Assembly: GCF_011745625.1 (NCBI RefSeq)
Contig: NW_027191487.1
Location: 62,001-126,000 of the forward strand
Reading direction: 5' to 3'
DNA: 64,000 nucleotides
Source: Cladosporium halotolerans
Lineage: Eukaryota
Positions 2,028 to 16,502 of this stretch are shown piece by piece; the stretch's first letter is position 1; every line of letters begins with the position of its first letter. The notes under the pieces are model-generated. The model saw only the letters and a list, made by a program, of their open reading frames with translations, was not told where the DNA came from and ran no database searches. Made by a program: the position numbers and the translations under genes.

Positions 2028-4782
2028 ATGAATGCAGCCCAAGTCTCCCGCATTGTGTCGGGAGCCACAAGTTCGGTCCCCATTACATGCGAGCCAGAGG
2101 CCCAACACCGCTCCAAAAGACCTAAGATATGCGAAGACGATGAGGCGGGTCGCTCGGGAAACACATACCAAGGAGCCACCGCGCAAGGCAAGTCGAACAA
2201 TGTGTTCGGCAACGTCACTACGATAACATGCATTCGCCATTAGGGTATCATGAGCGCAACACGGATTCGAACCAGATGGTGAAGGAAGCGCTCGCTTTTG
2301 ATGAGATGGATGACCGGTACGCCACTGTTCGAACAGCGCACACCGACACGTGTAGATGGTTCTTCGAAAAAGAGGCATACAAAATTTGGCGGGAGCCGTC
2401 GTGTTTCAGCTTGCACAACGGCTTCTTTTGGATCAAAGGGAAGCCGGGAGCCGGCAAATCAACACTCATGAAAGCTGCTCTGCAGTACGGGGTGACCAAC
2501 TTGGACGACATCGTTATCTCATTCTTCTTCAATGCAAGGGGCACAAAGCTACAGCAAACCACGGAAGGCATGTATCGGTCACTCATACACCAGATGCTGG
2601 ACAAAATCCCGTCTGCGGCGACGGCGATGCCCGTCCTGAAAGGCCCAAGAAGCAACCAAGAATGGCCCATAGAGCTGCTGAAGGAGGTGTTCCAGGCGTT
2701 GGTTACTAGCCTAAGTGGACATTCCGTCACTTGTTATGTGGATGCCCTGGATGAGTGTAATATCTCAGACGCAAGAGACATGATCGAATTCTTCGACTCG
2801 ATCGGGCAATTGATCTCGGAAAAAGAAGCCAACTTCCGAGTCCTTTTATCGAGCCGTCATTATCCGCACATTGATATCGCAGTATGCCAGGAAATGATTC
2901 TGGAAAGCCAAGAAGGTCACAAAACGGACATCTCTAAGTACAGACTGCGACCCATGAAGCCGAAGCAATCCGCCGAGATCCAGGCCGACATCGAAGATCG
3001 AGCCTCGGGCATCTTCTTGTGGGTGGTTTTGGTCATCAACATTTTGAAGGATGACATCGCGAGGGGACAGGTGCACCAGCTCAAAGTCCGTTTGAGAAGG
3101 GTTCCCGAGGATTTGAACAAGCTTTTCGAGCAAATACTGCGAAGAGGCTCACAAAATGACAAAATTCTTCGCTTAACGATCTTCTGGATCATGTACGCCA
3201 GTCGCCCGTTGAGTAGAGAGGAGCTATACTTTGCTGTCATGACAAGCTCAGCATGCAACGATGCCGTCGTACCTTGGAATAAAGACGAAATTGACCCCGA
3301 TGATATGCAAAAGTTCATCCTCGACTCCTCGAAGGGTTTGGCGGAGTGGACGAAAGGGAAAAAGCCCACTGTCCAGTTCATTCATGAGTCTGTGCGGGAA
3401 TATTTCAAAAATGGCGGACTGCAATCAATCGATCCCACATTTGGCCAGAACAAGGAGGCCACTATACACGAGGAGCTCAAAGTATGCTGCCAGACTTACG
3501 CGGACAGAGTCTCGGTGCTCATCGATTGTGCTGACTCTGACAACTTTCGAGAGGGCATCAATGAAGCTCACCCGTTCTTGAAGTATGCAACATACGGAAT
3601 GTTGTATCATGCAGACAATGCCCAATGTGAAGGCAAATGTCAGGGCGAATACCTTCGAGAGTTCCCCACTGATAGGTGGCAGATGATGAGCAATATGTGT
3701 GAGAAATTTGCAGCGCGTCGGTTGCACACATCGAACAAGCTGTACATTCTCGCGTTGAATAGCTTTTGCAACCTATTGGAGATTTTGCAGGATGTCCTGT
3801 CCGAGGAGACGTGGCACGACCTCCTGAACCTATCAGGCGAACAACATCGCTCCCCGCTCGGCGCCGCTGTTCATTCGGGAGACCATCAAGTCATCGAGTT
3901 CCTACTCAAGCATGGAGCCAGCCCTGATTCCAAGGGCAAAGACAACAAATCTTGCTTGTGGGTGTCAATCAGGAAAGGCGATTAGGCAATTTCAGGACAT
4001 TGGTCGACGCTGGCGCCAATGTCCGTCTCGAACCGAGATACTATGGAAGCAAGCTTGAAGCAGCTATCGCATCAGGTAATTGCACAGTCATGGAAGCGCT
4101 GTTAGCACATCCAACTTATGCAATGCCATGGCACAAGACTTTTTCTGATGCTTTGGATTCTTGGCCATGCCAGGAGAATCCCGAGGTGAAGAAAGTGCTT
4201 TTGTCCAGACTCTCTGCCATTGAGCAAATCTGGGATGCTCCTGCTCTGAAAGCTACTCCTGTTGAAGACACTCATGGCATCATGCCCTTGGCTTGCCGCC
4301 ATGGTCTATCGGGCCTTGTGAAGGCTATTCTCCAGCATCCAACCCCGTTTGAGGTTTTCTCCGGCAGGCCAGGATCTAGTCATCCACTCGTCGAAGCTCA
4401 AAAATGCAGACATTATCACCTTGTTGACCTCATGCTTCAATGGGGAGTCAAACAGTCCGCGCCCTACCTGTCGGGAAGGTCTATGCTCGAGTTGGCTTCC
4501 ATCGCGGGCAACAAGGAAATCGTCGACGCGCTTTTAGCCAAAGGGACGAATACTGAAGATAGTTTCGCATCACTTTCTGCTGCGGCTCAATATGGCCATG
4601 CCGACGTGGTACAAATGCTCTTGGAGCACGGGGACTACCCGAATCGCGTAGCAATGCCTCCTCACTATGACTTTACTATTGGCAATGACTCCAAAGATGA
4701 CGGTGAGAGGGTCCTCGACCTGCTTATCGAGCGTGGTCTCAACCTAAATACAGTCTTTTCGGGAAATGAACACGTAAGATAG
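2028..4782 (+). pseudogene. NLR-like NACHT-ankyrin protein with N-terminal HET-s-related amyloid motif; interrupted by at least two -1 frameshifts (~2216, ~3982), possibly a third (~4776)
   Basis: Walker A WIKGKPGAGKSTLMK, Walker B CYVDALDEC, ASGIFLWV, RPLSREEL, VQFIHESVREYF, then ankyrin repeats (SPLGAAVHSGDHQVIEFLLKHGASPD; SLSAAAQYGHADVVQMLLEHG). ORFs 1998-2243, 2228-3985 and 3952-4782 join if one base is added at each junction; no GT-AG intron explains the shifts. Confidence 0.8.
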
Positions 4783-5398
4783 AGAGGGCGGAAGTGCTTC
4801 TAAACCAGAGAAGCATCGACGTCAAAGCTAGGAGGCCTCGCTTCCAGATATCTTCACTTACTCTGACTCGGTGGAGTACCAGTCGAGAAAGCGCGATTGC
4901 TGAAAAGACACCGTGACAGTGGAGTGACGCCGCCCGATCCGGAATCCGGACCCATAGTCACAGGATTGGAGAGGGCCCGGGCCTGTGCATAGGCTTTCCT
5001 CTCATTCATGCTCGTGATATACAAAATCATCTCCACTGTCGGTTCAAAATTCTTCCCACGGTAGTCACCCCGGGGAGCATTTCACCTTACTCAGCAAGGT
5101 CGACGAGAACATCTGAGCGGTGACGTGCTTCCGCGGACACTTGATGTTTCAATAAGAATTGCACGGGACGAAATCGCATCAAAAGCACGATTCTTCACGT
5201 CAATGAGCAGTACCTGGCCTCGGCAACACGTTCTATGTCCATGACCACGAAGACATTCCCCACAAATCCCGCGGATGGTGAACGATTGTCACGGTCAACA
5301 TTCTCGGCACTGCCGAAGGTCGGGCAAAAAGCATTGGAGAGTCAGAGGGCAACGTTATATCGGATGGATCTGAGTTGGAGGGGGAATATATAGATAAT

Positions 5399-5445
<47 letters not shown>
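5399..5445. repeat. (GTA)n trinucleotide microsatellite, ~15 units, probably in the Rac 3' UTR region
   Basis: Perfect gtagtagta... run read directly at 5399-5445. Confidence 0.97.
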
Positions 5446-5447
<2 letters not shown>

Positions 5448-5592
5448 CAGTAGCAATAAGTGTAAGTAAGGGCGCCACATTCGCACTGCATTGCTTTGCA
5501 TTGAGAACAAAAAAGGGGATGTCGATCGGAGAGAGGGAGAGAGAGATGAATGATTTCGCTTTGTTTGAGAGAGACACGCGCGCGCAAGGGTA

Positions 5593-6367
5593 TTAAAGAA
5601 TGGCACATTTGCTCCTCTTGGGCTTGACGGGGGGCCGGGGGCTTATTACGGCTCTGGAGTTCAGTCATCGTTAGCCACGGTCCTTCTTCTTCTTTCTCTC
5701 TTTCAAATTGTACGTACTTGATCGCCTCGTCAAACACGCTCTTCAGATTCCTCTGCGTCAGGGCCGAGCACTCGAGGTACTTGACGGCCTTGATGTCCTT
5801 GGCGACCCCGACCGCCTGCTCGTACTGTATGGGCTGCATCTTGCGCTGGCGCAGCTGCTCCTTGACCTCGGGGTCGTCGCGGAGGTCGAGCTTTGTGCCG
5901 ACCAGGATGATGGGGACGCCGGGCGCGTGGTGCTCGATTTCAGGGTACCACTGTTGGCAGGAGGATTAGCAGGGTTCACTTATTCATTCCGCATTCTTTC
6001 ACATAAGCATGCCTCCTCTCCGCATGCTGTCATCTCCACCTCTTCTTCCTCAGGATGACCATACCTTGGCCTTAACGTTGTCAAAACTCGACGGCGAAAC
6101 AATACTGAAGCAGATCAAGAACACGTCCGTCTGCGGGTAGCTGAGCGGGCGCAAGCGGTCGTAATCCTCCTGACCGGCGGTATCCCAGAGACCCAAGCTG
6201 ATGGGCTTGTTGTCGACCATGACGCTGGCGGAGTAGTTGTCGAAGACGGTGGGGATGTACTCGCCGGGGAAAGCGTTGGTGGTGTAGGAGATGAGCAGGC
6301 AGGTCTTGCCGACGGCACCGTCGCCGGTGACGACGCATTTGAGCGACTGCGTGGCGGGGGCGGCCAT
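5593..6367 (-). CDS. RAC1: Rho-family small GTPase Rac; exons 6367-6065, 5950-5718, 5653-5593
   Basis: [63 protein letters not shown]; spliced C-terminus [10 protein letters not shown] (polybasic plus CaaL box). Introns GTATGG..CAG and GTACGT..CAG. Confidence 0.96.
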
Positions 6368-7866
6368 CGTTGTGGGTGGCGGTGGTGCGGCGCGGAGGGT
6401 GGGAGAGGGGTCCCTTGGCGGGACTGGGGAGGGAGGGAGGGAGGTCGGGCGGCGGTGTGCGGCGCTATGCTGCGCGATAAGGTCGCCGGGACGCGGGAGT
6501 GGACGGTGGAGAAGCCGCCTGAATTATTCGGGATGAGGTCGACGAGGTATGGCGTCGGCCGGTTCCCTTGCTCTTGCACGACAGGGCCTCAGACAGGTGA
6601 GGTCCGGCAGCGTGGGACGTGCTTCAGGGCTTCGATCTCCAAGGCAGAACGGGCGCCGAGGTCGAAGGGGAGCGTCGCTCGCCTGGTGCCGGAAAGGGTC
6701 CAGGAGGAGAACGACAGAAGGGTGACCCGGTAGGAATGGGTGACAACAGGCCTGGAGCACCGGTCGAGTCCAGTTGGCGCAGTGTCGTTGCGGGTGGGGG
6801 GAGGTGGTAGATGAGAGCGGAGGGGGTTCGGTCGGTTGAGTACCCTTGGTTCGGCGCGAGCCGTGGCTCGTGGGCGATCGGGCCGCCGACGGGAGGAAGG
6901 GAGGGAGGGAGTCGGTGCTTGCCGGCGAAGGATATCAAGACGAGAGGTGTCGGCGGTGGTATAGCAGCGGAGGAAGATGGGGAATTGCGAGTTTCACGGC
7001 AGGCGGTCTTGGTCGCTGCGAAGTGAGGTCGCATGGGTGGAAACACTCGCCACGCCACTGCAGATGCGCGCTGTGGGTGCTTTGGTGGCTGGCTAGTCCG
7101 AAAGCGGAGCCAGCTGGCCTGCTTTGACCGGCCCATTATTGCAGCCGCCAAGCAGGGCCTCAGCAAGATCCTGCGTGCATGTGAGCTCGCGAACGACGCG
7201 GCGCTTATACCGCCGGCATTATTCGTTGGTATAAGGCCAATCACCATGTGTAGCAACGACGATCTGCTATAATAGGTCTGTGATAGGCTTTAGGGGAGCT
7301 TGTCGGCAAGTCAACTTATGCATCTGGAAGCACGCGTTCCAAATCCGGCCGTGTCGGAAGACAATGCGAGATACCGCCCACACCGCGATTGTCATGCGAT
7401 TCTGAAATTGTCCATGTGCTGAGGTTGCATCTTCTCAGAGACAGTAATGCATACCGCATCGCGGATATAGCCTTGCACCGTCAAGGTGGCATCCGTCGCA
7501 TGTAACATCCTTGTGATGGTTCTCCCCGGTTGACATTCTGCAGTGAAAAGTCTCGTGAACATTCTGAGTAGTTCTGGTGTGCATCCGATACATGAACCAG
7601 CAAAGTCGTAGAATACCTATGCTCATGTTTGATACATGCAACAGCAAAAATGCATCGAATTCTAATCGACCACTAACCAAACAAAAGAGAAGAAACCCGA
7701 TCATGCCATCGTATCCAAGTAACAACACCAACCGTGAAGAAGGAAAAAAGGATACACCGCTAGAACGCGCATCAGACAAAAAGCAAAAATAAGCCATGCC
7801 CGTTGGACCTTTCAACGCCATTGAAACAAGAAGATAGTACGCTCGTCTTCCACTTCCTCTCAAACC

Positions 7867-10800
7867 TCAAACCTTCCTAGCCCCAAACAACCCCAGACTG
7901 ACCGCCGTGTCATTCTCGCCCATGACCGGTGTCGAATCCGGCACAATTTCCCAGTTCCTCAGCGGAAACGGCGTGAGCTTCACCTCAGCGGTCTGCTGGC
8001 GCGCCGCTGGCGATGGTGGGATCCTCGACGCAGCAGCTGAAGAACCCTGCTGCGGCTGCTGATGTGGCTGCGGGAGACGCTGCTGTTGCTGTCTCGCCAA
8101 GGCGCGCTGCTGCTGTGTCTGCGCTGGTTGCTGGACGCGGGAAGCGAGAGCTACAGTTGGGTAGGCTGATGTCGATGTTGCTGTGCCGTGGGAACCGAGG
8201 AGGAAGAGGACGCGGGGGTTTGTGAGTGGCGTGTGGCGAGCGAGGGCGGAGAGGGCTTCGTGGGTGAGGGAGTCGGCGTGTAGAGCGGCGACGTCGAGGA
8301 TGTGGTCGAGGAGGGGCTGGCGCATTTGCAAGCGAGGGTGGGAGAGGAGGGTGCAGAGGGCGATGAGGAGGTTGATGCGGGACTGCTTTGCCGCGTCGGT
8401 TGGTGGCGCGGTTTGGGCCGGTAGGGTGCAGAGGTGCAACAGGATGCTGAGTGTACGCGACATTGTTTGCAGCTTGTCTTGACAATCTGTCGCGGTGATG
8501 TTGACGTCACTCAGTTGCTTCTCCTGCAGCTTGAGCTTCTCTGTGAGCACTGCGAGGACGGCCGCATCGTCTTCGGACTTGACTGACGAGTACGTGACGT
8601 CCAGCACTTCGCAAAGCTGATCGTTGAGCTCGCCTCCTGCTTGGGCACGATTCTCCTGCAAAGCAGTGATCTCGGCGAGAATGCGTCCTCGCGCCCACGT
8701 ATGGATCTCCTTCAAGCTATCGGGCTTGGCCGCAGAAAGCAATTGAGGCCACACCTCAGACCTTTCCGCGACAGCTTTCAAAAGGGCGCTCTTGACAGCC
8801 TCATCTTTTCCAGCTCCCGCCGCAGCCTGGCCACTGCTGAACACTCTGAGCCATCCTATAGTAAAGGGAGCATTGAGCGCGTTCGCAGACTTGATAACTT
8901 CGCAAGCATCGATTTCCGCGACGGTAGAGGCCTGATCTTGAGACAGCAGGATCTTACAGATCCTCGCAGCAGCCTGTTGAGCAGCCTGCGAGTGCTGGTG
9001 GTCGCTGAAAGATTTCCCAAGCTTGCCCGGATGGCGAGTGATAATCCTCAGAATGAGATCGATGACCCCTTCAGCATCAAAAGCAAAGGCCGGATCATCA
9101 GCAACCTTGCGCAAAAGGCTGGCAACCTCTTCAGGCCGTTCATCACAGTAGCGCTGCTGCTGGAGTCGGAAAGCGTAAACCTCAGGCACCCCTAGACCGG
9201 ACGAGGGCGACGGCCCAGCCAGAAGCTGCAGCACGATTGCGGCTGACTTGAGCGGTGCCTGAGCTCCCAACGCAGCGACTTTGTCAAAGCTGAGGCATCG
9301 ACTCGCCGCAAGAGCCATGACACCGGAAAGAGCGGCATGGTCAGCTTGCCCCTTGTGCACAGTCGCCGCGACGTAATCCTTGGCCAGCTTCTCGAAACCC
9401 GCGCTATCGACGCTGCGAAGTTGGTTCAGCCATCTGTCGATTCCGCTCTCGGCTCCGGTGAGATCCGCGTCGGCCTTGCCCGATCGCTCAATGACTCGCA
9501 GGAAGACCCGCTGCATGGTCTGTTCGTCCATCGAATTTCCGCTGGCGAAGACGGCGTCAATTTCGGCAGTGCTGTCCAGATTGCCAGCCTGCATGCCGAC
9601 GAGGTTATCCGAGGCGGGGGAGCAGACGGCGGCGCTGTTTTGCTGCTCGTGAGCGGCCAAGTCGCTCTGGAGCAACTTTGCGATGTTGGCTTTCTCCGGG
9701 CATCGGTCGACCAGCGCCGTCAGTGCGAGCAAGAATTTGCGATCTAGATTCTGGCTCCTGAGAGCTTTATGTTGCTGTACCAGGAGATCGACCATGTGTC
9801 TAAACGATCCCAGAACAGCAAACTCAAGGGCGTGCATGTTTACTGTATCCGTAACAGAAGCGAGCAATCGTACATCCTCGGTCCGGACCGCATTCTCAAC
9901 AAGCGATGTAAGCGTAGATATATCACCGAGGCTTTCAAGGACGCTTCGTAAAGCTATGAAGGTCACGGGAGAGATGTTGGAATCTTGTCCCATATCCTTG
10001 ATCTTCGCGTGTGTCCAGCTCCGAAGCACCATTTTTGCAGATTCTGGAAGATTAAGAAGCGTCATCTGGATGTCGATAGACCGAGCATGAGTGCTCTCAA
10101 GCGCCAGCTCAATCTCCCTCTTTGCGTTCTCGATAGATTCATCATTTTCAACCTGTCCAAGGCGAGCCAGTAAGGTTGTTCTAAGATTCCGAAAGCGCTG
10201 CGGCATGTTTTCGACAGGAAGGGTAGCAAGCAATCCAGTGGCCAAGCTCGACTTGTCGGAGGTGAAGACCGCACCGCTGGCTATTATCCATTGCAGATAG
10301 GCACCAGTCGCGAAACAATCGTGTCGAGCGAGCTCACCAACCACAGCCCATACCTGTCGAGCCTCTGAAGGCAAAGCTGAGTTCGGAAATCGTAGGTACG
10401 CGAGAACAGCTTCGTCCGTATCGTAGCCAAGTTCGTGCAGGGTCGCAACGATCTTGGCAGCGATGTACACTCGTGCATGTCCGCGCCGGTAGAGCGTGCT
10501 GGACCAGTGCATGACGGCTCTGACAAGCTCGTTGTGGTTCGGAATGACTTCGAGGCATTTCGATGACAGCTTATGCATGTCTACTCCCAGACCCACACTG
10601 TCGAGCATCGTGTAAAGACCAAGTAGCGGACTGCGTGTTGAATCCGTAGTCCGTCCTATCGGACCTGCGAGAATCTCGTTTCGCCTGATGATATCCACCA
10701 CAGCGGGACGCACTCCAGTATTCTGAGTTGTCTCTTCTTGAACGAGCAGTCGTTTGTATTTCGCCCATGTGCTTGGCAGCACTAAGCAGCCTTTTGCGGT

Positions 10801-15263: not shown

Positions 15264-16502
15264 CTATGTGCTCTTCAAAGCAGCAAGCTGCGCCGCGCTC
15301 TCGGCAGCGAAGAGCTCGCTCTTCTTCGCCCTCTTCTTCAGCACGTTCTCAATGAACGCCTCGCCGGCCTTGTAACTGCTGCGAACCAGGGGTCCAGAAG
15401 CGCAGTACATGAAGCCCAAGTCGAGCGCGCGCTGGCGCCAGAGCTCGAACGTCGCGGGCGTGACGTACTCCTCGACCTTCATGTGGCGCTTGGTGGGCCG
15501 CATGTACTGGCCGAACGTGACGACGTCGACGCCGACGCTGCGCAGCTGCTTCAGCGTGTCCCACAGCTGCTCCTCCGTCTCGCCCAGGCCGAGCATGATG
15601 GAGGTTTTGGTGATGAGCTCCGGACGGGCTTCCTTGGCGGCGCGCAGGACGGAGAGGGACTGGGCGAAAGTGGCGCGGCGGTCGCGGACGTAGGGCGTGA
15701 GCTGGGGCGTGGTCTCGACGTTGTGCGCGTAGACGTCCAGGCCGGAGCGGGCTACCAGCGCGACTTGCTCGAGGTCGCCGGAGTAGTCTCCTGTGAGCGC
15801 TTCGACGAGGGTTGTCGGCGACTTCTGCTTGATCTTAATGATTGTCTCGGCGAAGTGGCGGGCGCCGCCGTCTACCAGGTCGTCGCGGTCAACGCTGGTC
15901 AGGACAACGTAGCCCAAACCCCATCGCGAAAGAGCCTCGGCGGTGTTCTCTGGCTCGTGCGGGTCGAGAGGCGGAGGCGCACGAGATGTCTTGACCGAGC
16001 AGAAGCGGCAGCCTCTTGTGCACGTATCTCCCATCAACATGATCGTCGCCGTCGCCGCGCTTTTGTCGCTACCACCCCAGCAGTCCGAAATGTTGGGGCA
16101 TTTTGCTTCCTCGCACACAGTGTGCAGACCCAATCCTCGCAAATCGTTCTTGATCTTCTTGAAGTTGTTGTTGCTAGGAATGGGCGTCTTCAACCATTCC
16201 GGCAACCGGGTGTGTTCTCGCTTGCGACCCTTGGGGCCGACTTGCACAGTCTTGAGCTCGAGTGCCTCCTCCGGCGAGATGGGCTCATCTGGCTTGCCCC
16301 CTACAAAGTCCGCGAACGAAGGCCCAGCATTGAGACGGTCGGAGAATTTGCTCGAAGGTCTGGGCTTTGTAGATGTTGGTGTGACGGTTGAGGGCTCGTT
16401 GACAGTGGTGGCGAAGCAGCGCTTCTGGGGAATGAGAGAGGGTCTGGTGTCAAAAAGCGCAGAAGCGACGAAGCGTCTTGTCGGGGGTCGGATGGCGGCC
16501 AT
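15264..16502 (-). CDS. LIP5: Mitochondrial lipoyl synthase (radical SAM)
   Basis: [12 protein letters not shown] (CX4CX5C), CTRGCRFC (CX3CX2C), RLPEWLK, AHNVET, GQYMRP, VRSSY; Arg-rich presequence from ATG 16502 ([10 protein letters not shown]). Confidence 0.96.

Follow-up and report, generated by a model that had tools for sequence, protein, structure and literature searches.

A HET-s-related motif ahead of a frameshifted NACHT-ankyrin NLR in Cladosporium halotolerans

A short peptide that resembles a HET-s repeat and precedes a fungal NLR raises three questions: whether it belongs to the receptor, whether it is a motif of the amyloid-signalling kind, and what remains of the gene that carries it. 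These questions arise in a stretch of 64,000 nucleotides of Cladosporium halotolerans DNA, hereafter the window, where positions 2157-2219 translate into GNTYQGATAQGKSNNVFGNVT, 21 residues that lie upstream of a NACHT-ankyrin NLR and in a different reading frame from it. A preliminary description of this DNA had called the peptide HET-s-like and had quoted the same 21 residues, which translation returns. It had gone on to propose an amyloid-signalling receptor working with a HeLo effector.

Motif and NLR in one frame

The ORF that opens at ATG 2028 reads MNAAQ...GRSGNTYQGATAQGKSNNVFGNVTTITCIRH* and stops at 2241-2243. It overlaps an open frame at 2144-3985, which contains an NPHP3_N/NACHT domain (Pfam NPHP3_N, E 1e-32; about 2345-2857, with the Walker A sequence GKPGAGKS at 2438-2461) and one ankyrin repeat, and an open frame of ankyrin repeats spans 3928-4782. 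An NTPase that has a Walker A and precedes ankyrin repeats (NPHP3_N, Ank_3) is what defines a fungal NACHT-ankyrin NLR (STAND). Homologues of this NLR number in the thousands, those that we can name being from Cladosporium, Aspergillus and other ascomycetes.

When searched by tblastn, the N-terminus, the NACHT and the ankyrin parts of homologues fall in three successive frames of the window, all on the forward strand. The first, motif-bearing one (2028..2225) comprises NLR codons 1-66, from M1 to I66; residues 1-66 of the orthologue P0004 align there at 98.5% identity and the N-terminus is the same in both. The middle frame (2225..3982) holds, according to Pfam and homologues, a linker, the NACHT/NPHP3_N domain, a helical region and the first ankyrin repeat. 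The third (3982..4782), assigned by Pfam (Ank_3 7e-13, Ank_2 1.6e-11) and by tblastn homologues, is the ankyrin-repeat sensor region, with its stop at 4780-4782. Homologues give no cover past ~4850; a short 3' intron after 4773, or a C-terminal extension, is a candidate feature at this end.

Two kinds of sequence read the motif and the NACHT together. In P0004, which is 93% identical, both share the single frame MNAAQ...NVFGNVTTINMHSSSGYHE...EALAFDEMDD. In contigs X2 and X3, from two other isolates and two studies and with 41 substitutions relative to the window in 3001 nt, an extra A behind 2224 and an extra T behind 3981 yield one frame of 921 codons from 2028 to 4782, where the single motif copy occupies residues 43-63, before the NACHT. 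Judged from these sequences the peptide truly forms the N-terminal part of the NACHT-ankyrin NLR, and the in-frame fusion to the NACHT that one would ask of related genomes is found, by alignment and tblastn, in the orthologue and in both isolates. Since the frameshift falls at 2224/2225, the repaired junction is ...FGNVTTI-NMHS..., i.e. GNVTTINMHS in the orthologue as in X2 and X3; the repair to GNVHY suggested earlier was mistaken. The warning that gene callers would miss the motif was justified: the public call P0003 (585 aa) takes the ATG at 2228..2230 (forward strand) as its start and leaves the motif out. The case shows that a frameshift can hide an amyloid-type motif from annotation.

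Likeness to HRAMs and the search for a partner

In published numbering (position rules from the text of Daskalov 2015), the motif runs from 2154 to 2216 on the forward strand and its positions 1-21 are S G N T Y Q G A T A Q G K S N N V F G N V. Checked against the 2RNM row in the supplementary table of Daskalov 2015, the identities to HET-s repeat 2 that had been pointed out hold at five positions, N3, G12, S14, G19 and N20. Translated in six frames, the window contains a single match to this five-residue pattern, at 2160, and block-shuffled windows contain on average 0.025 matches, with at least one match in 5 of 200 shuffles. As the pattern was picked post hoc, a family profile built without the window and the orthologue is the stronger test, and it scores the window peptide at 23.3 bits (E 4.1e-6) when the next of the 2061 six-frame pieces reaches 9.1 bits.

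The motif is conserved among orthologues and homologues, as the preliminary description had expected of a real one. It is common on NACHT-ankyrin NLRs, being kept by 82 of the 119 closest relatives, and by 94 of 246 when a second homologue set is included. The Gly of (Y/F)G(N/D) is the sole invariant column across 28 motif segments; it is also invariant in 26 full-length proteins, in which Y47, A52 and G54 reach 90% conservation or more, comparable to NACHT core residues. The same Gly sits a median of 88 residues (range 76-101) ahead of Walker A. Across 109 family motifs, a census in which the count of G19 holds by construction, we find Y/F5 in 94, A/T10 in 88, G/D12 in 93, R15 in 85, Y/F18 in 81 and N/D20 in 99; position 16 is N in 44, A in 28 and V in 22. 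The family consensus is YENxTAQGNSRNVYGN, and in many homologues a conserved basic KRRRLD-like patch lies upstream of it.

How well does this match an HRAM? According to Daskalov 2015, HRAMs have an invariant G19, hydrophobic residues at 5, 8, 10, 16 and 18, R or K at 15 as a preference and not a rule, and G or D at arch position 12; NLR-side copies have few charges and many S and H residues. The window copy has the invariant Gly19 at the beta-arch (2208-2210) and four of the five hydrophobic positions (Y5, A8, A10 and F18, two of them only Ala), with a polar N16. It has Asn15 where Arg or Lys is preferred; Arg15 is present in 85 of the 109 family motifs, so that this feature holds for the family and not for the window copy. 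Only one of its 21 residues is charged (K13), and its relatives abound in H, S and N. It starts near residue 43, deeper than the published HRAMs on NLRs, which start mostly at residues 5-9 (Wojciechowski 2022). By eye, the family cores are nearly identical to two NLR-side (r0) motifs in the supplementary table of Daskalov 2015, ...VTAQGNSRVQIGNN and ...SGDARVHNGNS, and a repeat of a Baudoinia HeLo-related protein in that table, ...RYVENEATDYAKAVYGNQ, resembles the family consensus. In the same table, published r0 motifs with such a core adjoin HeLo-related genes.

Scoring against HET-s profiles is a check that the preliminary description had recommended: the Pfam HET-s models miss the window peptide, and it has zero Pfam matches at E<=1 or at E<=10. 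Among its relatives, PF11558 touches L022 (E 0.019, at the repeat-2 part of the model) and PF17108 touches L027 (E 0.0099), each in 1 of the 26 segments of alignment A4, and PF17108 touches 1 of the 28 segments of alignment A1 (E 0.014), all below cut-off; across all Pfam, the relatives' tested motif segments are touched only by these two HET-s families. A Pfam match is no strict criterion, since PF11558 matches no more than 38 of the 155 published HRAM proteins (counts from the text of Daskalov 2015). Among PDB sequences, the profiles A1 and A4 and two single motifs retrieved no HET-s chain at E<=10, and the sole matches were chance ones to receptor tyrosine phosphatases (E 0.19-1.5). Four hexapeptides of the motif type have 0 occurrences in the portion of the text of the Wojciechowski 2022 supplements that was searched. 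Complex prediction with four copies of a 30-residue window peptide, run with the alignment unused, scored 0.02, a value that counts neither for nor against the motif.

As a comparison of sequences, the family fits the published HRAM pattern, even if likeness among G/N/S-rich peptides can be convergent. We consider, with a probability of about 0.6, that the locus is a fungal NLR of the NACHT-ankyrin kind, with one HRAM copy of the NLR-side 'r0' type in its first ~65 residues. Amyloid motifs of fungal NLRs are an established and thinly annotated class, which gene callers clip and Pfam mostly misses. The locus is probably an HRAM-type NLR of this already known kind, pseudogenised in the window strain, and our findings leave current understanding unchanged.

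A receptor of this type would be expected to have an effector with one or two matching repeats (HeLo, HeLo-like, sesA or PNP_UDP). The window, the flanks of 25 related loci and the databases were searched, and no such effector came to light. Within the 64-kb window, a profile search gave no second motif copy, and 29 long ORFs plus 50 more ORFs of the first ~21 kb contain no HeLo, HeLo-like, SesA, PNP_UDP or patatin domain. At the 25 motif-bearing related loci, the motif is present only at NLR N-termini, bar one weak match (12 bits, E 0.21) in a 23-residue piece of L075, and effector-type domains are absent from the 150 flank ORFs of at least 160 aa that were searched (2 further flank ORFs fell outside the domain search). 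Two motif-profile searches of databases returned NLRs and no effector with the motif, the first of them only NLRs or NLR fragments. In the text of Daskalov 2015, effector adjacency is itself 'common but not systematic' (98 of 155). What stands of the receptor first proposed is a conserved HRAM-like motif on an NLR, and the matching effector is the part that our searches of the window, the 25 loci and the databases did not bear out.

Amyloid signalling to a HeLo effector thus stays an inference, drawn from the analogy with NWD2/HET-S. The ankyrin repeats would bind a ligand and so cause the NACHT domains to oligomerise, and oligomerisation would gather the flexible N-terminal motifs and allow them to stack into a beta-solenoid-like amyloid nucleus. 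The nucleus might then template the same fold in a partner protein with matching motifs, encoded at a site not adjacent to the NLR, and the templated partner would execute cell death or some other response.

One might instead regard the peptide as a short linear motif that is conserved for some purpose other than amyloid formation (regulation, localisation or NLR self-association, for instance), its likeness to HRAMs being a matter of G/N/S-rich convergence. Such a role would suit the fact that a motif-bearing partner was found nowhere in the window, the 25 related loci or the databases, the Pfam and PDB sequence searches that fall short of significance, the basic patch ahead of the motif in many homologues, and a position farther from the N-terminus than is typical of published HRAMs. 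We hold it to be possible, if rather unlikely, because convergence would have to reproduce the published HRAM positions across the family, including G or D at arch 12 and the invariant G19, as well as a core nearly identical to that of published r0 motifs adjoining HeLo-related genes, and because in the whole of Pfam only HET-s models touch family members.

State of the allele

As sequenced, the allele in the window is broken in two places. The first frameshift (2224..2226, forward strand) is AA in the window vs AAA in the two other isolates, and is placed by contigs X2 and X3, by the tblastn frame change at 2225 and by the orthologue junction TTINMHS; it cuts the motif off from the NACHT frame. 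The second (3981..3983, forward strand), TT vs TTT in X2 and X3 and coincident with a frame change in homologues, makes a stop at 3983-3985 that detaches the ankyrin repeats. At 2941..2942 (forward strand) the window has furthermore lost 9 nt, or three codons, in frame relative to X2 and X3, and P0004 has three extra residues at this site. A piece of contig X8 across it, from another study and at a depth of only 2, has the shorter form. P0004 carries a separate frameshift of its own elsewhere in the gene, near window positions 3544-3669, and this break suggests that the gene is decaying in the lineage. With two 1-nt losses and a 9-nt loss, the allele of the window strain is in all likelihood a pseudogene, whose transcripts, if there are any, could encode no more than a motif-only peptide of 71 residues and a motif-less NACHT fragment starting at ATG 2228. 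We also considered an intron from GT 2214 to AG 2275 (62 nt) that might rescue the first frameshift, and rejected it: the donor is weak, splicing would remove conserved residues, and the other isolates have the extra A.

Could the gene be intact in the organism, both frameshifts being errors of sequencing or assembly in short runs of A and T? At each of the four sites where the window and X2 and X3 differ by 1 nt in length, it is the window that lacks the base, and the two that break the frame lie in AA and TT runs. Furthermore, the sole contig identical to the window at the frameshift sites, X1, may derive from the same sample, and X8 has no cover of 2224 or 3981. Yet the assembly looks sound, for long housekeeping ORFs of the window (1471, 1699, 1256, 1562 and 958 codons) are unbroken and X1, an independent contig build at depth 34, reads the same letters. 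A homopolymer error does not account for the 9 nt missing at 2941, where the X8 piece has the shorter form too, and the orthologue is broken by a different frameshift. We therefore think an intact gene unlikely and favour a pseudogene. The alleles form a series, with one frame in two isolates, independent breaks in the window strain and another break in a third sequence, and this series is a natural start for tests of the function of the motif.

Known systems and remaining readings

The canonical HRAM1 pair is NWD2/HET-S of Podospora anserina. The window NLR is like NWD2 in having one 21-residue motif ahead of the NACHT; besides the residues shared with HET-s repeat 2, the window motif has N3, A10, G12, G19 and N20 in common with the r0 motif of NWD2, and amyloid templating from NLR to effector would be the mode of action to expect. 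The differences are also clear. The repeats of NWD2 are WD40 and those of the window NLR are ankyrin; the window motif starts near residue 43 and not at the extreme N-terminus; it has Asn and not Arg at 15, and Asn at core position 16; the window has no HeLo gene adjacent to the NLR; and the Pfam HET-s models pass over the peptide.

Other HRAM classes offer partial parallels. HRAM5 is linked to HELLF/FNT1. It resembles the family studied here in having a polar residue inside the core, which is Asn16 in the window and in 44 of the 109 family motifs; it differs in that this residue is Gln in HRAM5 (text of Daskalov 2015), and a HeLo-like partner was not found in the searches made here. HRAM3 is described in the text of the same paper as having H at position 3, and the more distant relatives of the window NLR carry His3, in keeping with this description, together with NARVH(M/L/N)GD cores. 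Unlike HRAM3 and NLR12, the motif of the window combines Asn3 with an NNVFGN core. According to Wojciechowski 2022, NLR12 occurs chiefly in Sordariomycetes and with PNP_UDP effectors, NLR-side copies exceed effector copies by a mean of 5.7:1, and partners are often non-adjacent, which agrees with the lack of effector neighbours here.

One might speculate further that motifs of the NSRNVYGN type make up an 'orphan' branch of HRAMs, in which the Asn residues of core position 16 would form a ladder. This branch, widespread on NACHT-ankyrin NLRs and devoid of an adjacent HeLo partner, would serve an unlinked class of effectors or act only as a scaffold for NLR self-assembly; the free 71-codon motif ORF, if expressed, could then be a seed or a decoy for the remaining family. 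A branch without a neighbouring effector fits published hints of HRAM-like NLR motifs with unlinked partners or another role, but we regard this extension as doubtful.

The PP (RHIM-like), sigma and PUASM motifs are likewise short N-terminal amyloid-signalling modules on NACHT or NB-ARC NLRs, and all are rich in G, N and Q, so that the peptide might be thought to belong to one of them and not to the HRAMs. This is very improbable, as the window peptide has neither of the patterns that Wojciechowski 2022 describes for two of these families, G-hydrophobic-Q-hydrophobic-G for PP and FxGxGxQxxGxGxF for PUASM, and the weak Pfam matches of the family go to HET-s models only. Finally, that the peptide is an untranslated leader with a chance resemblance to HET-s, the gene beginning at ATG 2228 as in the public call, would accord with the weakness of five identities in 21 residues taken by themselves, but it is contradicted already by the orthologue and the two isolates that read the peptide in frame, by the 82 of 119 homologues that keep it, by the leave-out profile, and by the zero substitutions that separate the window from X2 and X3 between 2047 and 2375, although there are 41 in the 3001 nt compared.

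A frameshifted NLR gene with a motif-bearing N-terminus

The NLR gene lies in three forward-strand frames. A motif-bearing ORF runs from the ATG at 2028 to a stop at 2241-2243 and translates as MNAAQVSRIVSGATSSVPITCEPEAQHRSKRPKICEDDEAGRSGNTYQGATAQGKSNNVFGNVTTITCIRH; in Pfam, a second frame (2144-3985) carries an NPHP3_N/NACHT domain (E 1e-32) with the Walker A GKPGAGKS and one ankyrin repeat, and a third (3928-4782) further ankyrin repeats. The translation from 2028 reproduces exactly the codons 2157-2219 on which the preliminary description had based the motif. The public gene call for this DNA (P0003) takes ATG 2228 as its start and leaves the motif out. The orthologue P0004, 93% identical, has ...GNTYQGATAQGKSNNVFGNVTTINMHSSSGYHE...EALAFDEMDD... 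in one frame in the protein database, and tblastn places its residues 1-66 at 2028-2225 and its residues 67-522 at 2225-3592, one frame over. The N-terminal, NACHT and ankyrin parts of other homologues fall in three successive frames of the window by tblastn.

We compared 3001 nt with the contigs of two public runs (X2 and X3), which come from other isolates and two studies. Relative to the window they carry an additional T behind 1988, an A behind 2224, 9 nt behind 2941, a T behind 3981 and a T behind 4881. Restoring the A (2224) and the T (3981) turns 2028-4782 into a single frame of 921 codons. The junction therefore reads GNVTTI-NMHS, which replaces the erroneous GNVHY proposed earlier. 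Taken together, these comparisons show that the N-terminal peptide is part of the NLR. Over the same 3001 nt there are 41 substitutions; coding differences comprise 15 synonymous and 21 non-synonymous changes, the latter concentrated in the ankyrin repeats (4549-4719), and no substitution falls in the 329 nt of motif and linker (2047-2375).

One might attribute the frameshifts to assembly errors. The contig of a further run, X1, has a depth of 34 and no difference from the window, but X1 is possibly the source sample itself. ORFs elsewhere in the window extend unbroken over 1471 (Med12), 1699 (DNA polymerase zeta), 1256, 1562 and 958 codons, and the assembly is therefore not riddled with indels. 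Run X8, which belongs to another study, reaches neither of the frameshift sites; its contig piece spanning 2941, of low depth (2), has the 9-nt-shorter form. By tblastn, P0004 has a frameshift of its own near window positions 3544-3669, an independent lesion of the same gene in another sequence. Near its residues 507-522 the protein leaves the frame of the window, and it terminates early, with motif and NACHT still in frame. We regard the window allele as likely a real pseudogene.

Conservation of the motif and its likeness to HRAM

A profile of 28 motif segments (domain E<1e-3) finds the motif in 82 of the 119 closest homologues, in 94 of 246 proteins when a second homologue set is added, and in 78 of the 125 homologues with 70-199 residues ahead of Walker A. 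The Gly of (Y/F)G(N/D) is the sole invariant column of the 28-segment alignment. It is also invariant in 26 full-length proteins, where conservation of Y47, A52 and G54 is 90% or more, and it precedes Walker A by a median of 88 residues (76-101). A profile of 26 segments, from which the window and its orthologue were excluded, gives the window ORF 23.3 bits (E 4.1e-6 among 2061 six-frame pieces), and the next-best piece 9.1 bits. These results show the motif to be a conserved feature of the family. In many homologues the motif is also preceded, at a distance of about 15-25 residues, by a basic patch (KRRRLD-like); at the equivalent place, about 2112-2135, the window has SKRPKICEDDE.

Amyloid motifs related to HET-s (HRAM) are defined by a Gly that is invariant at position 19, by hydrophobicity at 5, 8, 10, 16 and 18, by Arg/Lys as the preferred residues at 15 and by either Gly or Asp at arch position 12; copies on the NLR side (r0) have little charge and are Ser/His-rich, and HRAM5 has Gln at 16 and HRAM3 His at 3 (Daskalov 2015, PMC4518210). 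In this numbering the window motif reads S1 G2 N3 T4 Y5 Q6 G7 A8 T9 A10 Q11 G12 K13 S14 N15 N16 V17 F18 G19 N20 V21. Among 109 family motifs, all with G19 by construction, Y/F5 occurs in 94, A/T10 in 88, G/D12 in 93, R15 in 85, Y/F18 in 81 and N/D20 in 99, and position 16 is N in 44, A in 28 and V in 22. In the supplementary table of the same study, HET-s repeat 2 is TTNSVETVVGKGESRVLIGNE and the r0 of NWD2 is MANQVRSIHAEGQARVHVGNS, and the five identities to repeat 2 claimed previously hold against it. Published r0 motifs including ...VTAQGNSRVQIGNN and ...SGDARVHNGNS, and a Baudoinia HeLo-related repeat (...RYVENEATDYAKAVYGNQ), as they appear there, come very near both the family consensus YENxTAQGNSRNVYGN and the cores of relatives, e.g. 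HDNARVHMGD.

Would standard models recognise such a relationship? No Pfam model, those for HET-s included, matches the N-terminal peptide at E<=1, and PDB searches with the motif returned no HET-s match. Among relatives, one of 26 segments matches PF11558 (L022, E 0.019, repeat-2 part of the model) and PF17108 is matched by one of 26 (L027, E 0.0099) and one of 28 (E 0.014), all below significance; scans of both segment sets yielded no other Pfam family. PF11558 matches just 38 of 155 HRAM proteins (Daskalov 2015, PMC4518210). We put the probability that the motif is related to HRAM at roughly three in four. The best PDB hits of the 28-segment profile, receptor-type tyrosine phosphatases (NRYxNIxAYDHSRV segment, E 0.19-1.5), were read as chance.

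Search for a partner effector

The 64-kb window contains no second motif copy, and no effector-type Pfam domain was found in 29 long ORFs across it or in 50 further ORFs of its first ~21 kb. The NLR is flanked by genes for a fungal transcription factor, a Rho-type GTPase, Med12 and other housekeeping functions. Just downstream, a (GTA)18 microsatellite (5399-5453) overlaps the low-coordinate end of the minus-strand piece 5342-5965 of the Rho/Ras-family GTPase gene; this piece and 6050-6523 both match Ras.

Of 80 related metagenome loci, 25 have the motif, always at the NLR N-terminus bar one weak match (a 23-residue piece on contig L075), and no HeLo, HeLo-like, SesA, PNP_UDP or patatin domain was found in their 150/152 flanking ORFs of at least 160 aa. 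L075 carries two motif-bearing NACHT-ankyrin NLR genes ~6 kb apart (copies at 10001-10084 and 16129-16197). The motif profile gave 51 matches among 5.8 billion proteins, of which 47 are NLRs and the other 4 fragments of NLR N-termini. Such searches rely on 5-residue words that query and target share, with E-values scaled to a very large database, and diverged effector repeats could therefore be missed. In one class of HRAM-like NLR motifs, the ratio of NLR-side to effector copies is 5.7:1, often with unlinked partners (Wojciechowski 2022, PMC9815663), which fits the results here.

The motif ahead of a NACHT-ankyrin NLR is confirmed, and its interpretation stands in part: it is probably an HRAM-type r0 motif, in a known kind of system, and the window copy is a frameshifted allele with no detectable partner. 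Family resemblance is the sole basis on which the motif may be supposed to template amyloid.

The motif in other architectures

A broader profile gave 70 matches, mostly NLRs, with a few other architectures; these carry NARVHMGD-type motifs, and the NSRNVYGN type of the window is on none of them. Tandem NARVH(M/L)GD-type copies precede ankyrin repeats in P0274 (three copies, two of them under a weak PF11558 match, E 0.059) and a kinase-like glycine loop in P0311 (two copies). The same type accompanies the ubiquitin-like domain ULD_2 in P0314, P0315 and P0318, and DUF6590 in P0320. In P0271, a copy reading ENARAHYGD lies ahead of a Walker A (GIGGIG) that has no Pfam match and looks NB-ARC-type, not NACHT.
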